IMG/VR virus record: IMGVR_UViG_3300043080_000590
Coordinates: 258,386 to 322,385 of that record
Direction: 5' to 3' (one strand)
Length of the DNA stretch: 64,000 nt
Source: a virus
Lineage: Duplodnaviria > Heunggongvirae > Uroviricota > Caudoviricetes
Below, in pieces: positions 45,218 to 53,774 of this stretch. The stretch's first letter is position 1. Each line of letters opens with the position of its first letter. A program made the position numbers and the translations under genes. The notes under the pieces are model-generated. The model did not search any database and was not told where the DNA came from. It worked only from the letters and a program-made list of their open reading frames with translations.

Positions 45218-45760
45218 ATGAGAAAATATGCTAATAACGAAGAAGTTTTCGAATATTATTCTATTCCATACAAATATCCATATTTAAGTGATGCTCAAAT
45301 TTTTGTTTATTTATATACAGAAGAAATAGATAAAGATTTAGTTTCTCAATATATGGATGAACCACAATTTTTAATGAACTTATACAAGTTCTTGTCAGGA
45401 GGAGATAAAATTGAGTTAATAAAGAAAATAACAAGATTATGGAAATTACTTGATTTAAATGATAATGACGAATTTATATTTTTTCAGTCAATAGTTTTCT
45501 TGTCTAATATAAATAAAAAATTATACTGTCAAGGATATAATATATACTGTGATATTGATGTACTTGTAAATCAGTTACCATTTCTTTTATTCAAGACAAG
45601 CGAAAGACGTGAAGAAATTATAAATAATGTACAGATGTATGCTTCAGACGATACTAATAATAGTATGGACTATCAACTAAATATGCTATTTGCAGAACTT
45701 TCTGTTCTTATTGGCAAAGAACATATTAAGATTTATTCACTGCTTTTAAATAAACAATGA
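45218..45760 (+). CDS. Hypothetical protein
   Basis: 180 aa with RBS AAGGTGA. Confidence 0.4.
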   Translation: MRKYANNEEVFEYYSIPYKYPYLSDAQIFVYLYTEEIDKDLVSQYMDEPQFLMNLYKFLSGGDKIELIKKITRLWKLLDLNDNDEFIFFQSIVFLSNINKKLYCQGYNIYCDIDVLVNQLPFLLFKTSERREEIINNVQMYASDDTNNSMDYQLNMLFAELSVLIGKEHIKIYSLLLNKQ

Positions 45761-46268
45761 GAGGTGTTGAATAATATGTATTTGAATTTAACGGACGTTT
45801 TTGACATAGGATGTAATATAGATTGTAATTCTGATTATCTAATAGATAATTTTGATTGGTATGATTTTTGTTATAATCATATTGATTATTATTATGACGA
45901 TGATAATTGTGTAGAGGATTATGATTTTTCAATTTATGAAAAGAAAGATTTAAATATACTGAAAAGTTATTTAACTAATTGTATTGAATTTCCTAATAAT
46001 GGAGATATTCAAAAGTGTTTGGATTTATTTAAAGTTAGAAATATCTCTGAACTTAAAGACAATTATTTAAAAGAACTTAGTCTTTTCCGAGTTACAGACA
46101 ATGTTGAGGAAATTGTTGCAACAATAAAGAATTGTTGTAATTTCAATGTAGAGAGGTTAAAGAAATCAGTTGTAGATACTATTATTGAAATAAGGCAACC
46201 GCAATCTCACTGGCTTTAGACGGTGGGTTAAGGTTGCCAAAAGTATAAAATTGTAGTATAATCTTATT

Positions 46269-46673
46269 ATGGAAGTATGGAAATCAAAGAACAGACACAA
46301 GTATTTATTACAATATCATATAATCTTTGTATGTAAATACAGAAAGAAATTATTTACATTTGATAGAATATTAGATGACATAAAACAGTTTTCGTATGAG
46401 ATATGTCAAAAACACAGTGTAATAATTAAATATATGGAAACTGATAAAGACCATATCCATTATATGATAGAAACAGAACCAACGATGTCTGTTAGTAAAA
46501 TAGTAAATCTTATGAAAAGTTATACAACATATCATATATGGAAACGCTATTCGGTTTATTTAAGAAAACGCTATTGGAAAGAAAATACTTTTTGGACTAA
46601 TGGATGTTTTGCTTGCAGTGTAGGAAATGTTTCGGAAGAAATGTTAAAAGAATATATAGAAAATCAAGGTTAA
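46269..46673 (+). CDS. tnpA: IS200-like Y1 transposase TnpA
   Basis: 134 aa. The HxH motif is HIHYMIE and the catalytic Tyr region is YTTYHIWKRY. Confidence 0.8.
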   Translation: MEVWKSKNRHKYLLQYHIIFVCKYRKKLFTFDRILDDIKQFSYEICQKHSVIIKYMETDKDHIHYMIETEPTMSVSKIVNLMKSYTTYHIWKRYSVYLRKRYWKENTFWTNGCFACSVGNVSEEMLKEYIENQG

Positions 46674-46680
46674 AAAGGCG

Positions 46681-47794
46681 GTGACAGCGATGTTAAAGGC
46701 ATACAAATACAGGATTTATCCCAATGAAGAACAAAAGATATTGTTAGCAAAAACATTCGGCTGTTGCCGTTTTGTTTATAATAAAACACTTGCATACCGT
46801 AAAGAAAAATATGATAGTGAAAGAAAGTCTGTTAGTAAAACAGATTGTAATAATTACTGCAACAGAGAATTAAAGACAGCATATGAATGGCTGAAAGAAG
46901 TGGATAAATTTGCCCTTACCAATGCTGTTTACAATATGGATAATGCTTATCAAAAATTTTTTAAGGAACATACAGGCTATCCTAAATTTAAAAGTAAGCA
47001 CGACAATAACAAATCATATACAACCAATTATACCAATGGTAATATTGACGTAGATTTTGAGAACGGAAGAATAAAACTCCCAAAACTTAAACAAGTAAAG
47101 GCAAAACTACACAGAGTTTTTGACGGACAAATAAAATCAGCCACAGTTTCACAAGTACCGAGCGGAAAATTTTTTGTATCTGTTCTGGTGGAAACCGAGC
47201 ATAAAGAACTTCCACATAAACAAACGAATATTGGGTTAGATTTAGGAATTAAGGATTTGTGTATAACATCTAATGGTAAAATTTATAAAAATCCTAAAGT
47301 AATAAAAAGGTATGAGAAAATGTTGACAAAGTTGCAAAGACAACTTGCACACAAAAAAAGAGGAAGTAATAATTATTATAAAGCAAGGAAACGGGCTGCA
47401 TTGTGTTATGAAAGAATAAAAAATACAAGAAAAGATTATTTGCATAAAATTTCAAAAGAGATTATAAGCGAAAACCAAGTTATAGTTTCAGAAGATTTGC
47501 AAATAAAAAATATGATGAAAAACGATAATCTTTCAAAAAATATAGCTGATGTATCATGGTATGATTTGACAAGGCAGTTGGAATATAAAGCAAAATGGAA
47601 TGGCAGAGAATACGTTAAAGTAGATACTTTTTATGCAAGCAGTCAAATTTGTTCCGAATGTGGATATAAGAACGCAGAAGTAAAGGATTTGTCTGTTAGA
47701 AAAATGGATATGTCCGAAATGCGGAAAAGAGCATAACAGAGATACAAATGCAGCAAAAAATATATTAGCGGAAGGACTAAGACAAATAGCATAA
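46681..47794 (+). pseudogene. tnpB: IS605 OrfB/TnpB (RuvC-like, Zn finger) with +1 frameshift in an A-run near 47700-47710
   Basis: The ORF stops after ...[15 protein letters not shown]. The +1 frame continues [29 protein letters not shown], which is the canonical TnpB zinc-finger end, down to the stop at 47792-47794. Confidence 0.7.
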
Positions 47795-47901
47795 AACAAA
47801 TATATAGGGCAGGAACTGTCCGAATTTACGCCTGTGGAGATAGTAGGTTGCGAGGTCTGAGAAACAGGAAGCCCGTTGGCTTTAGACAACGGGTAGTTCA
47901 C
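47795..47901 (+). ncRNA. Putative TnpB omega-RNA (right-end element RNA) scaffold
   Basis: A GC-rich structured right end lies directly 3' of tnpB (…gcccgttggctttagacaacgggtag…). By the known architecture of TnpB systems, the guide would be the about 16 nt immediately downstream (atttatacaactaatg). Confidence 0.4.
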
Positions 47902-48118
47902 ATTTATACAACTAATGAAGATGCTATAAATACTATAATAGTTAATATTGGTGAAGATTATGTAAATGATTTTAAAGAAAAGTATTATTCAGAAAAATAT
48001 TATTAATATAATTTAAATGTTGTAAGGCAGGTAATGTAACAGTTATCTGCTTTTTTTGTATATAAAATATATTCTTTTTTAATAGATTTATTTTTTTAAT
48101 AAAAAGGTGGGTAATATA

Positions 48119-48634
48119 ATGAAAAGATTATTAAAGAAAGCATCTAAATCTTTGAATTTAGATTTGAATGCTGTTTTTAATCTTTGCAATAGTGAAGATT
48201 GCTTTGATTATATTGAAGATAATTTCAATTGGTACGATTTTTGCTCAGACTACGTAGAATATGAATATGACGAAAATTCAGTAGATACTTATGATATTAC
48301 AATTAGTGAAAATTCAGTATTAAGAATTGTTAAAGAGTTTTTAGAAGAAAATATTGTTTTTCCTAGTAATATTCAAGAATGTTTAGACTTATTTAAAGAC
48401 AATAATTTATCTGAACTTAAAAATACATATTTAAAAAATTGTGATATCTTTGATTATTTAAATGATGAAGAAGCTATTGAAGAAATTAAACAAATTAGTG
48501 GTTTTAATGCAGAAAAATTAAAAAAGGCTGTATTGAATTGTCTTGTTGAATCTTGGATTTTTGCAGAAAAATATGGTCAAGTAGAAAGAAACATAATTGA
48601 AATAGGTAATGAATACGCAGACGAATTTAAATAA
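48119..48634 (+). CDS. Hypothetical protein, intact paralog of the IS-interrupted gene
   Basis: RBS AAAGGTGG. Conserved motifs N(F)xWYDFC and ...ECLDLFK...LSELK are shared with 45764. Confidence 0.5.
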   Translation: MKRLLKKASKSLNLDLNAVFNLCNSEDCFDYIEDNFNWYDFCSDYVEYEYDENSVDTYDITISENSVLRIVKEFLEENIVFPSNIQECLDLFKDNNLSELKNTYLKNCDIFDYLNDEEAIEEIKQISGFNAEKLKKAVLNCLVESWIFAEKYGQVERNIIEIGNEYADEFK

Positions 48635-49062: not shown

Positions 49063-50019
49063 TTGATTTTAGAAAATCAAACAGTTGTTATTCAATGGAC
49101 GGGGCGTAATAGAAAAGAATATGAGGAATTAGGATATATCTTTACTAAATTTGGAGACCCGTTAGAAATTAAAGTAGAACATTTACATAAAGGTTCTCAT
49201 GAAGAAGTTTGGTATGAATGTGATAATTGTCAAAAAAAAGATAAAAGAGAATATAGAAAACTTCTTAAACAAGATATACATTATTGTAAAAAATGTTGTA
49301 CAATTAGACGAGAAGAAACTTGTATGAAAAAATATGGAGTAAAAAATACATTTCAGAGTGAAGAAAAAAAGGAAAAAATGCGACAAACTTGGAATAGAAA
49401 ATATGGAGTAGATAGCCCTTTAAAAAATAAAGAAATACACGATAAAGTAGAAGCAACCTGTATGAAAAAATATGGGGTAAAAAATACTTTTCAAGTAAAA
49501 GAGTTTCAAGAAAAAGGTAGACAGACAATAATTGAACGCTATGGAGAAGATTATTATAAAGAAAAAGCACTTACAATGATAAGAGCTTTAAATAATAAAA
49601 ATAGCTCAACAAGAACTTCTAATAATCAAGCAAGTATTTGTAATTGGACAAATGGTACTTTAAATTATAGAGTAAATAAATATTCTTTAGATATTAGAGT
49701 AAATGATAATTTGTATATTGAATACGATGGTTCAGGACATACATTACCTGTTATTTTAAAACAAGTTTCTAAAAAAGTTTTTAAGAAAAAAGAATTATAC
49801 AGAAACAAATATATGGAAAACTTGGGATATAAACTTATAAGGGTTATTAATCGTCAAGATGTTGATTTAAATAAAGATGAATTTTTAAAGTTATATAATT
49901 TCTGTGTTGATTATCTTAAAAATACAAATTATAAATGGATAAAAATTTATTATGACAAACAAATTGTTATAAGTAATATTTTTAAAAAAACTTTTGAAGA
50001 GGTGATAAATAATGAGTAA
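49063..50019 (+). CDS. Putative free-standing homing-endonuclease-like protein: N-terminal triplicated KYGVxNTFQ modules plus C-terminal Vsr/DUF559-like (PD-(D/E)xK) nuclease domain
   Basis: Three repeats of C(M)KKYGVKNTFQ... are present. The C-terminal segment YIEYDGSGH...ENLGYKLIRV resembles the DUF559/Vsr fold. It abuts the gyrB start, and the stop and start overlap. Confidence 0.45.
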   Translation: MILENQTVVIQWTGRNRKEYEELGYIFTKFGDPLEIKVEHLHKGSHEEVWYECDNCQKKDKREYRKLLKQDIHYCKKCCTIRREETCMKKYGVKNTFQSEEKKEKMRQTWNRKYGVDSPLKNKEIHDKVEATCMKKYGVKNTFQVKEFQEKGRQTIIERYGEDYYKEKALTMIRALNNKNSSTRTSNNQASICNWTNGTLNYRVNKYSLDIRVNDNLYIEYDGSGHTLPVILKQVSKKVFKKKELYRNKYMENLGYKLIRVINRQDVDLNKDEFLKLYNFCVDYLKNTNYKWIKIYYDKQIVISNIFKKTFEEVINNE

Positions 50020-50329
50020 TAATTATGATGTTGGGCAAATATCGTCTTTGGAAGGATTAAAATCCGTGCAATGTAAGCCAGCCATGTATGTAGGTTCTAC
50101 CTCCCAAGATGGTGTAAACCAAATAATTTATGAAGTATGGGATAATTCATTTGATGAATACAATGCAGGGTATGGAAATAGTGTTGATGTTCTTATTGAT
50201 AAGGACAATTATATAACTATTGAAGACCACGGTAGAGGTATTCCTGTTGGACCTCATGCTACTTGGAAAAATCCCGATGGTACACCGCAAGATACATTAA
50301 CAGGCGTATTAACAAGATTACACTCAGGT
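50012..50329 (+). CDS. gyrB: DNA gyrase subunit B, exon 1 (ATPase N-terminus, ends ...TRLHSG)
   Basis: Sequence ...VQCKPAMYVGSTS...EVWDNSFDE...EDHGRGIPV... is GyrB-like. The ORF stops 5 codons into intron 1. Confidence 0.8.
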
Positions 50330-50661
50330 AAGGGAATGATTGCTTGAGTATAAAACCACTTTAATTGAATTTTATATAAATAAAAATAATATAAAATTGC
50401 TGGAAACCTCTAAGATTTAAATTACTACAACATAATCGGAAATGATAGGTGTGAAAGTTAAAAAAATTTAAAATACATGAGCAATCAGCAGCCAAAATTC
50501 TAAGTATGATTAAGTTATATATGAATAAGGTTCAACGACTATCGAAAACGTAAGAAATATTTTTACAAGTGAGTAGAGTACATATATGAAAATATATGGA
50601 AACGAGTGGCACATTTTTTATGTGAAGATATAGTCTAATTTATATTGAAAAATATAAGTTG
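50330..50661 (+). ncRNA. Group I intron 1 (ORF-less, 332 nt)
   Basis: P1 forms between exon CUCAGGU and the IGS GCUUGAG at 50343-50349, with a U-G wobble at the splice site. Core elements are P aattgctggaaa (50393), Q aatcagcagcc (50481), R gttcaacgactatcg (50529) and S aagatatagtct (50624). The 3' terminal nucleotide is G, and the spliced product reads LHSG|GKLF. Confidence 0.8.
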
Positions 50662-51658
50662 GGTAAATTATTTGCTAATGGGGAATCAGGATATTTTAGT
50701 ACGATAGGCACGTATGGTCTGGGAGCAAAACTTACTAACGCTTTATCTGATGATTTTATCGCTAAAGTGAAAAGAAATGGTAGAATTTATCGGCAAACAT
50801 TTAAAAAAGGTAGACCTACCTCTGATGTTGAAATTATTGGTACTGTTGATTTAAATGATACAGGAACTAAAATTACGTTTCATCCTGACTCTACAATATT
50901 TAAAACGACAATTCAACCAAATGATAAAAAATTACAAAACAGACTTGATGAAATAACTTCTTTAAATACTAATTTAAAAGTTAATTATAAAAATGAATTG
51001 GCTAATGTAGATACAACATTTTATTATCCTAATGGTATCGCTGATTATATAAATAAGAAGTTGTTAAAAGATAAAAAACTTTTGTTCGAAGAACCAATTT
51101 ATTATTCAAGTGAATACGTGGATAATGATGAAACTATTAAAGTTGAATTTTCTTTAATGTATGTTGATGATGTGGAAAGTAATGAAATTATTAAAACATT
51201 TGCTAATAATGTATCAACAAAAGAACACGGTACACATTTAGTAGGTTTTAAAGAGGGTTACAAAGAAGCTATTAATCAATATTCAATAAGTAAAAAATGG
51301 ATAACCGAACCCATTGAGATTAAATATCTAATGGATAATATTTGTTTAATTGTATCTGTTAAGTTAAGAGAATGTGAGCTTGATGGACAAACAAAAAATA
51401 AATTAGGTAATTTAATAGCTAAAGATGGTGTTGCTAATGTTGTTAAAGAATACTTTAATAAATTAAGTAAAGAACAACAAGTAGTAATACAAACAATAGT
51501 TGAAAGAGCTAATAAAGTAAAAGAAGCAGAAGAAGCTGCAAGGAGAGCAAGAATAAACACAAGGACTGCTAATAAAATAAAGAAAATAGCATTACCTGGT
51601 AAACTTGCTGATTGTAGTAGCAATAAAGGATATAGTGAGTTATTCTTAGTTGAAGGAG
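50662..51658 (+). CDS. gyrB: DNA gyrase subunit B, exon 2 (…GKLFANGESGY…LADCSSNKGYSELFLVEG)
   Basis: GyrB ATPase-transducer and the start of TOPRIM. The ORF-track ORF is 50659-51666. The exact 3' boundary is uncertain by 1-2 nt. Confidence 0.75.
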
Positions 51659-52038
51659 TAGCCTAAGGCAGAAACTCCCTATTAAGTAGTAATATTTAAT
51701 AGAAAATTTCTTTAATTGCTGGAAGTTCCTAAAATTAATTATACCTTATAAAAGGTTGCGAAAGTAGAAAAAAATAATTAAATGATATATGGTGATAGTA
51801 AACCTAAGTATTATAAGAAATAATAATTTCTAACAATGGATAATCAGCAACAAAATATATAAATAAAAAATATATATGTTCAACGACTATGCTTTAAAAA
51901 GCAGTAGGATAAAAGTTTATCTGAAATGGGAAAATACTTAAATGTTTAAGTATATGATATAGTCTATGCACTAATGAAAGTTAGTGAAAAACTAAATGTT
52001 TTTATTATAGTTTAACAAACTATGGTTAATGTAATTAG
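51659..52038 (+). ncRNA. Group I intron 2 (ORF-less, about 380 nt), same subfamily as intron 1
   Basis: Core elements are P aattgctggaag (51711), Q aatcagcaac (51843), R gttcaacgactatgc (51879) and S atgatatagtcta (51954). The 3' end is G at 52038. The 5' junction is placed by protein homology (EG|DSAGG). Confidence 0.7.
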
Positions 52039-52106
52039 ATTCTGCTGGTGGTTCAGCAAAGAACGCAAGATATAGAGAATTTCAAGCTATATTACCATTA
52101 AGAGGT
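52039..52106 (+). CDS. gyrB: DNA gyrase subunit B, exon 3 ((D)[22 protein letters not shown])
   Basis: 68-nt micro-exon encoding the invariant [16 protein letters not shown] segment. It is absent from the ORF track. Confidence 0.75.
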
Positions 52107-52416
52107 AAGGAATTTGCCTCTACATTTCTAACTGTTTGATATAACAGGGTATGCTTAAAAACGATTTAAATTCGTTTTAAGGCTTGCTAACGAGGAAAGC
52201 TTAACATTATACATATAAGTCAAAATATGTTCAGGTGAAGTCAATCTCGTGCGAAATATAGCGATTTAATAATCGCTGTTCGTGTATCGACTATCCTAAG
52301 TTAGATTAGGAGTACAGGTTTTATAAAACTTGGAAATGGAATGACCGTTTTAAAAAGTTTGACAAACTTATAGGCTAAGAAATAGTCAGTGCTATTAGAA
52401 ATAATAGATTATAATG
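52107..52416 (+). ncRNA. Group I intron 3 (ORF-less, 310 nt), different subfamily
   Basis: P1 forms between exon AGAGGU and the IGS GCCUCU at 52116-52121, with a U-G wobble at the splice site. The 3' terminal nucleotide is G at 52416. The spliced product reads LRG|KILNTEKA. Confidence 0.7.
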
Positions 52417-53216
52417 AAAATCCTTAATACTGAAAAAGCCAGTTTTGAAAAAGCATTAAATTCAGATGTTATTAAATCATTTATTGCTGCAATAGGAACA
52501 GGTATAGGAAAGAATTTTAATATAGATAAATGTAGATATGATAAAATAATTATGATGTGTTTTACAGAAGATACGCAAGTAAAACTTTTAAATGGTACAA
52601 ATCCAACTTTTAAAGAATTAGTTGAAATGGAAGAAAAAAATCCCAATCAAACTTATGAAGTTTATTCAAAAAATAGTAATGGAAAAATTGTACACGGTAA
52701 AGCACATAACCCAAGAATTACAAGTTATATTCACGAATTAGTTGAGTTGACATTAAATAATAATGAGGTTGTTAAATGTACAAGAAATCATTTATTTATG
52801 CTTAATGATGGTACATATAAAGAAGCTCAATTATTAACGACAGAAGATTGTTTAATGAGTATGCAGGAAGAATGTAATAGGATTATTAATAAACAAATTG
52901 TTACTCTTGACCATTTAATTCCTGTCTATGATATAACAGTAGAGGAATATCATAACTTTGCTTTAAATAGTGGTGTGTTTGTTCATAACTGTGATGCGGA
53001 CGTTGACGGTTATCATATCTCAAACTTAATTTTAACTTTTATATATAATTATATGCGACCTTTAATTGAAAATGGTTATATATATTTAACAGTACCACCT
53101 CTTTATAAAGTTATTACTAAAAAGGAAAGTCTTTATATAAGAGATGATATTGAGTTAAAAGAATATAAAAAGAAACACCCAAGAGAAAATTTAGAAGTAC
53201 AAAGATTTAAGGGGCT
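52417..53216 (+). CDS. gyrB: DNA gyrase subunit B, exon 4 (TOPRIM), containing a mini-intein
   Basis: Sequence KILNTEKASF...IGTGIGKNF...KIIMM[intein]CDADVDG...PPLYKV...QRFKGL. The ORF-track ORF is 52414-53250. Confidence 0.8.
52558..52989 (+). other. Mini-intein (144 aa, no endonuclease domain) in the GyrB TOPRIM motif
   Basis: It starts CFTEDTQVKL with Cys1. Block-B-like CTRNH is present. It ends GVFVHN and is followed by Cys+1. Removing it restores IIMM-CDADVDG, matching the conserved IIMTDADVDG motif. Confidence 0.75.
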
Positions 53217-53587
53217 AACTCTTTGTCCTGACCCCTATTCATTTTATTAAGTAAGTTTAATACTTGCAAACGGAAAGAGCCTAAGTATGTTTAGAAAAAT
53301 ATTTTTGTAATAATTTAAAATATTTTTGCAATATAAGGTAATCCCGTGGGAAGATATTTAGAAAATATTTTTTTAGAAAGTGTTTTTTAGAAAGTGTTTT
53401 TAAATAATTATTTTTTAAATATAGCCTGTACAGACTAAAGGTAGGAAACCTTGTAGGAATAAATTAAATTCCGAAACAGTGAATAGTTATATTATGTTGG
53501 TATTGTTTTTATAAATCTTTAAATACTGTTAAAATAATATAAATAAAGATATAGTCGGCGGTTTATAGAAATATAAATTAAACGCAT
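53217..53587 (+). ncRNA. Group I intron 4 (ORF-less, about 371 nt)
   Basis: P1 forms between exon AAGGGGCU and the IGS GACCCCU at 53230-53236, with U53216 wobble-paired to G53230. An S-like aagatatagtcgg lies at 53546 and R-like gtacagactaaa and P-like aatcccgtgggaag are present. It contains a 15-nt tandem repeat at 53377-53406. Confidence 0.65.
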
Positions 53588-53774
53588 AGGAGAAATGGAT
53601 TACGAAGAACTCAAAGTCACTACAATGGACCCAGCAACAAGAGTGTTAGAAAAGATTGCTATTGATGATGTTGAAGAAATGGTAGAAGCATTTAATGTAT
53701 GTATGGGAAGTAATGTAGAGATAAGAAGAAAATTTATTGAAGAAAACGCTCAGTCAGTAAATTTAGATAATTAA
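53588..53774 (+). CDS. gyrB: DNA gyrase subunit B, exon 5 (C-terminus (L)GEMDYEELKVTTMDPATRVLEKIAIDD...FIEENAQSVNLDN)
   Basis: It matches the conserved GyrB C-terminus GLGEMNxEQLWETTMDP...RRxFIEENA. It is absent from the ORF track. The 5' boundary is uncertain by 1-3 nt. Confidence 0.7.

Follow-up and report, generated by a model that had tools for sequence, protein, structure and literature searches.

A complete IS605-group element in a very large phage, with tnpB probably inactivated by a recent one-base insertion

In a 64,000-nucleotide stretch of phage DNA (the window, here always meant at its full length), the tnpB gene of a transposable element ends in a short tail after a run of five adenines, and the C-terminus typical of a TnpB protein is encoded in the +1 frame. 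An earlier note on this DNA left two possibilities, i.e., a sequencing error or an inactivated RNA-guided nuclease, and pointed to an omega-RNA and a guide at the right end of the element. The question that this locus raises is whether the extra adenine is real and, if it is, what the element has kept and what it would have lost.

The window is phage DNA, with tape-measure, baseplate, DnaB-like helicase and SbcC-like genes; no tRNA genes were found in the window, and megablast of 16 kb of flank on each side of the element returned no phage relative from GenBank. The longest contig with this locus has 502,690 bp, which makes it probable that the window, at 26% G+C, comes from a megaphage-sized genome.

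The element, its ends and the phage gene around it

The element is an IS200/IS605-family (IS605-group) insertion sequence of 1712 bp on the + strand (46190..47901), and its boundaries were taken from relatives, from an empty site and from the restoration of a reading frame. On the left side, T-T-G/A-A-A directly precedes 48 independent insertions of relatives, whose flanks diverge 5' of the motif, and the empty site of one relative (L006), recovered in seven viral contigs, reads ...GAAATTGAA followed immediately by ATTGTGATG, without gap or duplication; the element thus starts directly after TTGAA (46185..46189, +), the target site and TAM that abuts the left end on its 5' side. On the right side, related insertions are conserved up to ...GTAGTTCAC and then run into 59 distinct right flanks, setting the boundary at 47901; counted by locus, the conserved sequence stops at ...GGGTAGTTCAC and the following 20 nt are different in 59 of 68 loci. 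Typically, members of the IS605 group insert 3' of a specific 4-5-nt target and do not duplicate it, as seen at the relative's empty site. A pattern search of viral and metagenome contigs for the empty site of the window's own insertion found none.

The left end (46190..46268, +) combines nested hairpins with a promoter-like site. A GGCAACC...GGTTGCC stem encloses CTCACTG-GCTTTAGA-CGGTGGG, and TTGCCA-17-TATAAT (46234-46262) is near-consensus, matching at 11 of 12 positions. The right-end hairpin is CCCGTTG-GCTTTAGA-CAACGGG and has its loop in common with the left-end hairpin, the GGCTTTAGAC loop being found at both ends. Such subterminal hairpins at both ends, in place of terminal inverted repeats, are again an IS605-group trait; compensatory changes are seen in them among relatives, and the left-end outer stem of the window shows a compensatory A:T to T:A swap when compared with relatives.

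Both genes of the element lie on the same strand, tnpA first. The tnpA gene (46269..46673, +) encodes an apparently intact Y1 (HUH) transposase of 134 aa (Pfam Y1_Tnp, E 2.3e-34), which aligns with the TnpA of IS608 (2a6m, E 7.7e-18) and keeps the HUH motif (DHIHYM) and the C-terminal KEYIENQ tyrosine; public gene calls start tnpA at a later codon on identical DNA. Besides the HUH motif and the catalytic Tyr, the element resembles IS608 of Helicobacter pylori, the model for Y1 TnpA transposition, in its subterminal hairpins with a shared loop at both ends and in inserting 3' of a short, fixed motif, with no duplication of the target. It differs in its end sequences and in its target, TTGAA rather than the TTAC of IS608. 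The closest relatives have 75-80% amino-acid identity and are abundant in gut Lachnospiraceae genomes and viral contigs. A literature search returned nothing relevant on TnpB proteins that use a TTGAA TAM or on tnpB pseudogenes with a frameshift.

The insertion splits a phage gene. The 5' part (45776..46189, +) continues into the left end as far as a stop at 46219, and the 3' part (47902..48006, +; IYTTNEDAINTIIVNIGEDYVNDFKEKYYSEKYY and stop) comes back into frame when the element is removed: taking out 46190-47901 joins ...VVDTIIE to IYTTNEDAINTIIVNIGEDY... in an open frame with a 172-aa product. This joined product aligns across the junction with a neighbouring paralog at 48119-48634 (43% identity, E 1e-35). 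A protein search with the reconstruction, looking for an uninterrupted version of the gene, returned the interrupted version only. Neither the interrupted gene (45764-46219, 47902-48006) nor the downstream paralog (48107-48634) has a Pfam match; redundancy between the two may explain why the insertion is tolerated.

On the + strand, a phage gyrB/topoisomerase-II ATPase-like gene (50012-53774) lies in pieces, i.e., 50012-50347, 50659-51666, 52414-53250 and 53595-53774 (GyrB_C). A group I intron sits at 50356-50657 (Rfam RF00028, 52.6 bits vs a gathering score of 50), the piece at 52414-53250 contains a Hint/intein insert (...MMC/FTEDT...VHN/CDADVDGYH), and two gaps remain, of ~750 nt after 51666 and ~345 nt after 53250, with sub-threshold group I intron matches at 51891-51984 (24 bits), 52227-52408 (16.9) and 53544-53576 (19.9). 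Directly upstream of this intron-bearing gyrB, a 318-aa DUF7487 protein with repeated KKYGVKNTFQ motifs (49063-50019, +) may be homing-endonuclease-like.

The adenine run in tnpB and its predicted consequence

As it stands, the tnpB ORF (46690..47736, +) encodes 348 aa, of which 338 are native and 10 are out-of-frame residues, from the ATG at 46690 to a TAA stop at 47734-47736. All relatives start three codons downstream of the GTG at 46681, from which the earlier reading had started the gene; the true start is the ATG at 46690 (MLKAYKYRIYPN...), which the public gene call uses as well. The frameshift itself was described correctly, with respect to the tail of the ORF, the +1 frame and the repair, and the run that had been put near 47703 is located at 47700..47704 (+), an A5 run with a 1-nt insertion in the context GTT AGA AAA A TGG. 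Past the run, the +1 frame stays open to a stop at 47792-47794, and this out-of-frame 3' end of tnpB (47705..47794, +), 29 codons long, carries the second zinc-finger CxxC and the third RuvC aspartate. When one A is deleted from the run, a 367-aa protein results that has matches to all three Pfam domains, i.e., HTH_OrfB_IS605, OrfB_IS605 and Cas12f1-like_TNB; in the unrepaired gene the TNB domain is split by the frameshift.

Relatives agree with the repaired version. A length of 367 aa is that of nearly all of the best 120 relatives (>100 relatives), and all 67 relatives whose right end could be located are in frame at the site of the A run, where they read V-R-[E/K/T/D/Q]-W; two of these 67 have AGAAAATGG with A4. 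The closest copy is a sibling that we found through a protein cluster: the 90% cluster of the truncated protein has one more member, P0123, encoded on L121, a 2,042-bp contig of JGI 3300035520, in which a copy of the element with ~96% nucleotide identity to that of the window sits at a different site and adjoins a Peptidase_M16 gene. At the run, L121 reads GTTAGAAAATGG (A4) and its tnpB C-terminus is intact. Since this sibling, inserted elsewhere, has A4 and an intact C-terminus, A4 is, by sequence comparison, the ancestral state and the window carries a one-base insertion; the agreement of relatives and sibling on the frame is, by the same comparison, far beyond chance. This sibling (L121 1-760), whose right flank is GCCGTTATTACAGGTT, may mark the bacterial lineage that gave the phage the element.

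For the protein, ISDra2 TnpB is the natural reference, and residues 3-363 of the repaired TnpB align with it (8bf8/8h1j, E 7e-84). In ISDra2 TnpB the catalytic centre is formed by D191, E278 and D361, and the zinc finger by C331, C334, C351 and C354 (PMC10097598); mutation of any residue of the DED triad abolishes the nuclease activity of TnpB (10.1101/2023.11.30.569447). The equivalents of D191 (GLDLG), E278 (VSEDL), C331 and C334 are upstream of the frameshift and kept, and those of C351, C354 and D361, i.e., C341, C344 and D351 of the repaired protein, are downstream of it. As it stands, tnpB encodes no single polypeptide with the complete RuvC D-E-D triad, the third D being encoded only in the +1 frame, and the CCCC zinc finger of the TNB domain is likewise incomplete, with its second CxxC out of frame. 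Having lost two zinc-finger cysteines and the third RuvC aspartate, the 348-aa product is predicted to be nuclease-dead and unable to cut DNA.

The right end as a predicted omega-RNA, with a putative guide

The earlier note had also proposed that the right end has the architecture of an omega-RNA, and suggested a structural comparison with known omega-RNAs; conservation, covariation and features in common with ISDra2 all point in that direction. The noncoding part, 47795-47901, has 48% G+C vs 26% for the window, and is nearly invariant among relatives although the synonymous sites of tnpB are saturated. With 57 distinct right ends aligned, RNAalifold and pair counts gave a predicted scaffold core at 47774..47901 (+). 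Its parts are a GGACU pseudoknot strand within the last tnpB codons (47774-47778), a hairpin at 47807-47821, a stem of 47831-47835 with 47864-47868 that contains an inner stem, and the right-end hairpin at 47871-47894 with a UUUA loop (47881-47884), after which the RNA would end in GUUCAC.

Over the 57 distinct right ends, this five-helix model has 97.6% of cells paired and nine pairs changed on both sides; none of 500 shuffles reaches any of the observed measures, and slid controls pair 24-43% of cells. The double changes are confined to two helices, i.e., the hairpin at 47807-47821 and the right-end hairpin, and the other three are supported by conservation and one-sided changes only. Please note that the covariation in the right-end hairpin is not specific to an RNA role, because TnpA is expected to bind the same hairpin as DNA. 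The partner of the 3' strand at 47774-47778 is GGA(U/C)U, and synonymous variation is depressed in codons 362-367. Another candidate partner of the 3' UUC, the loop GAA at 47813-47815, was rejected: a loop of 3 nt cannot pair in this way, and a subset of relatives has neither GAA nor GGA there. Scanned against Rfam at E up to 1, 45500-48600 matched no family, and this predicted omega-RNA is thus covered by no curated one.

The comparison with ISDra2 of Deinococcus radiodurans found an ISDra2-like GUUCA 3' end and UUUA tetraloop. Both elements have the order tnpA-tnpB and an omega-RNA drawn from the 3' end of tnpB and the right end; the repaired TnpB has the DED triad and CCCC zinc finger in place, and the TAMs are near-identical (TTGAA here vs TTGAT). 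The pseudoknot strand of the ISDra2 omega-RNA is specified at four positions, -6G, -5U, -3C and -2A (PMC10097598), and the scaffold of the window, with G-U-U-C-A at -6 to -2, agrees at all four. The UUUA tetraloop of the last hairpin lies at -21 to -18 here vs -20 to -17 in ISDra2. In contrast to ISDra2, the middle stem is shorter, without a counterpart of stem 3b, and the pseudoknot partner is further upstream, at ~-128 to -124; the two elements also belong to different lineages, and the tnpB of the window is frameshifted.

The extra A lies ~200 nt upstream of the right end, outside the omega-RNA core, and the scaffold of the window differs from that of the intact sibling in a single place, one compensatory G:C/A:T pair; for these reasons the omega-RNA scaffold looks intact. 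The 16 nt of phage DNA that flank the right end (47902..47917, +; ATTTATACAACTAATG) had been suggested to be the guide, and the boundary at 47901, fixed by independent insertions and by the relative's empty site, places the predicted guide exactly there. Right flanks are insertion-specific in relatives. In the 64-kb window ATTTATACAACTAATG has no other close match, the best having two mismatches, and matches are no more frequent than for shuffles; judged from this, the only sensible target of the guide would be the emptied donor site.

Age of the insertion, competing readings and meaning

Against relatives, the dN/dS of tnpB is 0.05-0.09 at saturated dS and does not differ from that among intact relatives, and at 230 positions that are >=95% conserved in 113 relatives, the TnpB of the window departs at 10, all 10 changes being conservative. 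Of the five that fall within the region covered by the L121 fragment, three are also present in this intact sibling. When relaxed selection was sought in the window lineage after the frameshift, the polarised amino-acid changes were few and conservative. The downstream frame is undecayed, with 27 of the 29 out-of-frame codons identical to those of the sibling. On these patterns we take the frameshift to be recent and the gene to have been under purifying selection until very recently, because of the low dN/dS, the conservative changes and the sibling-like codons.

Broken tnpB copies are uncommon, not exceptional: among full-length relatives, 96 of 99 have an intact tnpB and three a disrupted one. 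Premature tnpB stops are found at codon 118 in the copy on L023 and L024 and at codon 217 in that of Roseburia inulinivorans (L081). In two top-scoring relatives, P0001 (412 aa) and P0007 (398 aa), stretches of 30-45 residues are internally duplicated in tandem, which is either an artefact of assembly or a real duplication within tnpB. Within tnpB itself, synonymous variation over 59 relatives dips to 0.32-0.48 at ~47440-47545 (codons ~251-285) vs ~0.6 elsewhere, which hints at an embedded constraint, e.g., an internal promoter or RNA element; a weak promoter-like site lies at 47487-47516.

The pristine downstream frame fits equally well a very recent mutation or continued use of that frame via frameshifting. 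If the frame were still in use, leaky or programmed recoding, i.e., a +1 slip of tRNA-Lys on AAA-A or polymerase slippage, would yield some full-length TnpB and a down-tuned nuclease. A slip from AAA (47701-47703) to AAA (47702-47704) would re-pair perfectly, and the +1 frame does still encode a conserved, undecayed C-terminus; against this, a frameshift at this place occurs in none of the 67 relatives, nor in the 96%-identical sibling, the 0-frame codon in the A site, ATG, is neither rare nor a stop, and a Shine-Dalgarno-like stimulator at the right spacing is absent. For efficient slippage of the polymerase, five A's are a short run, and the recency of the insertion already accounts for the preserved downstream frame. 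We consider recoding improbable.

Distinctly improbable, too, is a sequencing or assembly error with a true sequence of A4 and an intact tnpB, a reading that draws on the position of the change in a homopolymer, the classic site of errors, on the intact and conserved sequence downstream and on the A4 of the closest sibling. What speaks against it is reproducibility. The exact 348-aa frameshifted product is encoded on eight public contigs (longest 502,690 bp), i.e., all eight contigs on record have the frameshifted tail, and five contigs, assembled from four samples by two pipelines, JGI (L029 in 3300043081; L031 and L033 in 3300043006) and Logan (L030 in SRR11793810; L032 in SRR11793812), agree with the window at 100% identity over their covered parts, the A run included; these samples may share one project or habitat, and their independence is one of libraries and assemblers, not of separate phage populations. 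The repaired 367-aa sequence, the A4 product of the window's own copy, is absent among ~15 billion public proteins. A pattern search of viral, genome and metagenome collections found no A3-A7 variants of the window's copy, with a pattern strict enough to miss L121, which escaped through two nearby substitutions. Five A's are moreover a short run for a systematic error, and a random sequencing error is unlikely; an A4 subpopulation of low frequency may still be present. Of the two possibilities in the earlier note, real mutation is thus favoured over error by the same A5 in independent assemblies, by the lack of any recorded A4 version and by the A4 of the closest sibling.

That the one-base insertion has been kept because it benefits the phage, either as a trickle of TnpB via +1 slippage on AAA-A or as a nuclease-dead, omega-RNA-guided binder, seems to us very doubtful; were the latter true, such a binder would be a first step of TldR-like TnpB domestication in a megaphage, with tnpA and both ends still attached. 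Like TldRs, which are TnpB-like nuclease-dead repressors, the truncated protein has lost the C-terminus with RuvC-III and zinc finger; the remainder of its fold and the scaffold of the guide RNA are kept, and the setting is a phage. Unlike here, TldRs come without tnpA or transposon ends, form conserved clades and have promoter-aimed guides; the present case is a single fresh frameshift within a complete transposon, in which tnpA, left end and right end are all present and intact, and the inactivation is found in one clonal contig set only, with the sibling and 96 of 99 relatives intact. Incipient exaptation of the truncated TnpB as a TldR-like, nuclease-dead RNA-guided DNA binder for the phage has the intact omega-RNA scaffold in its favour and is the least credible reading of all, as tnpA and both transposon ends are still attached, the guide is a mere insertion flank without another close target in the window, the truncation is limited to one clonal lineage with no sign of selection on the truncated form, and the discarded frame is still pristine.

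We are left with a reading that we hold with considerable, though not full, confidence, namely that an A4-to-A5 insertion has recently inactivated the tnpB of an otherwise complete IS605-group element, with TnpA mobility probably kept and TnpB-dependent retention lost. In this proposal, an IS605-type element would have inserted into a gene of a very large and AT-rich phage, directly 3' of a TTGAA, and in the phage lineage tnpB would then have gained an extra A in its A4 run. The 348-aa product would keep the first two RuvC acidic residues and the first CxxC and, without the second CxxC and the third catalytic aspartate, is predicted not to cut DNA. Because nothing has changed in tnpA, in the two ends or in the omega-RNA scaffold, TnpA could still excise and transpose the element, and we infer that the omega-RNA may still be expressed. 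What would be lost is the cutting by TnpB of the emptied donor site (TTGAA followed by ATTTATACAACTAATG), which normally restores the element by recombination.

It is not our intention to make more of this copy than it is. The element is an ordinary, recently broken copy of the well-known IS200/IS605 kind; that kind is already known, the 1.7-kb copy adds one more IS605-group element to it, and the finding matters little by itself. What it records is an ISDra2 relative, with TTGAA as TAM, that occurs widely in gut Lachnospiraceae and in their viruses; here it has been caught inside a very large phage, shortly after an insertion in a homopolymer had broken tnpB. For annotation, the frameshifted tnpB should be labelled a pseudogene and the split phage gene joined, and for this TnpB clade the locus provides a defined TAM, a right-end boundary and an omega-RNA model. 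It also shows, in nature, the kind of C-terminal loss that could be the starting point of nuclease-dead TnpB derivatives.
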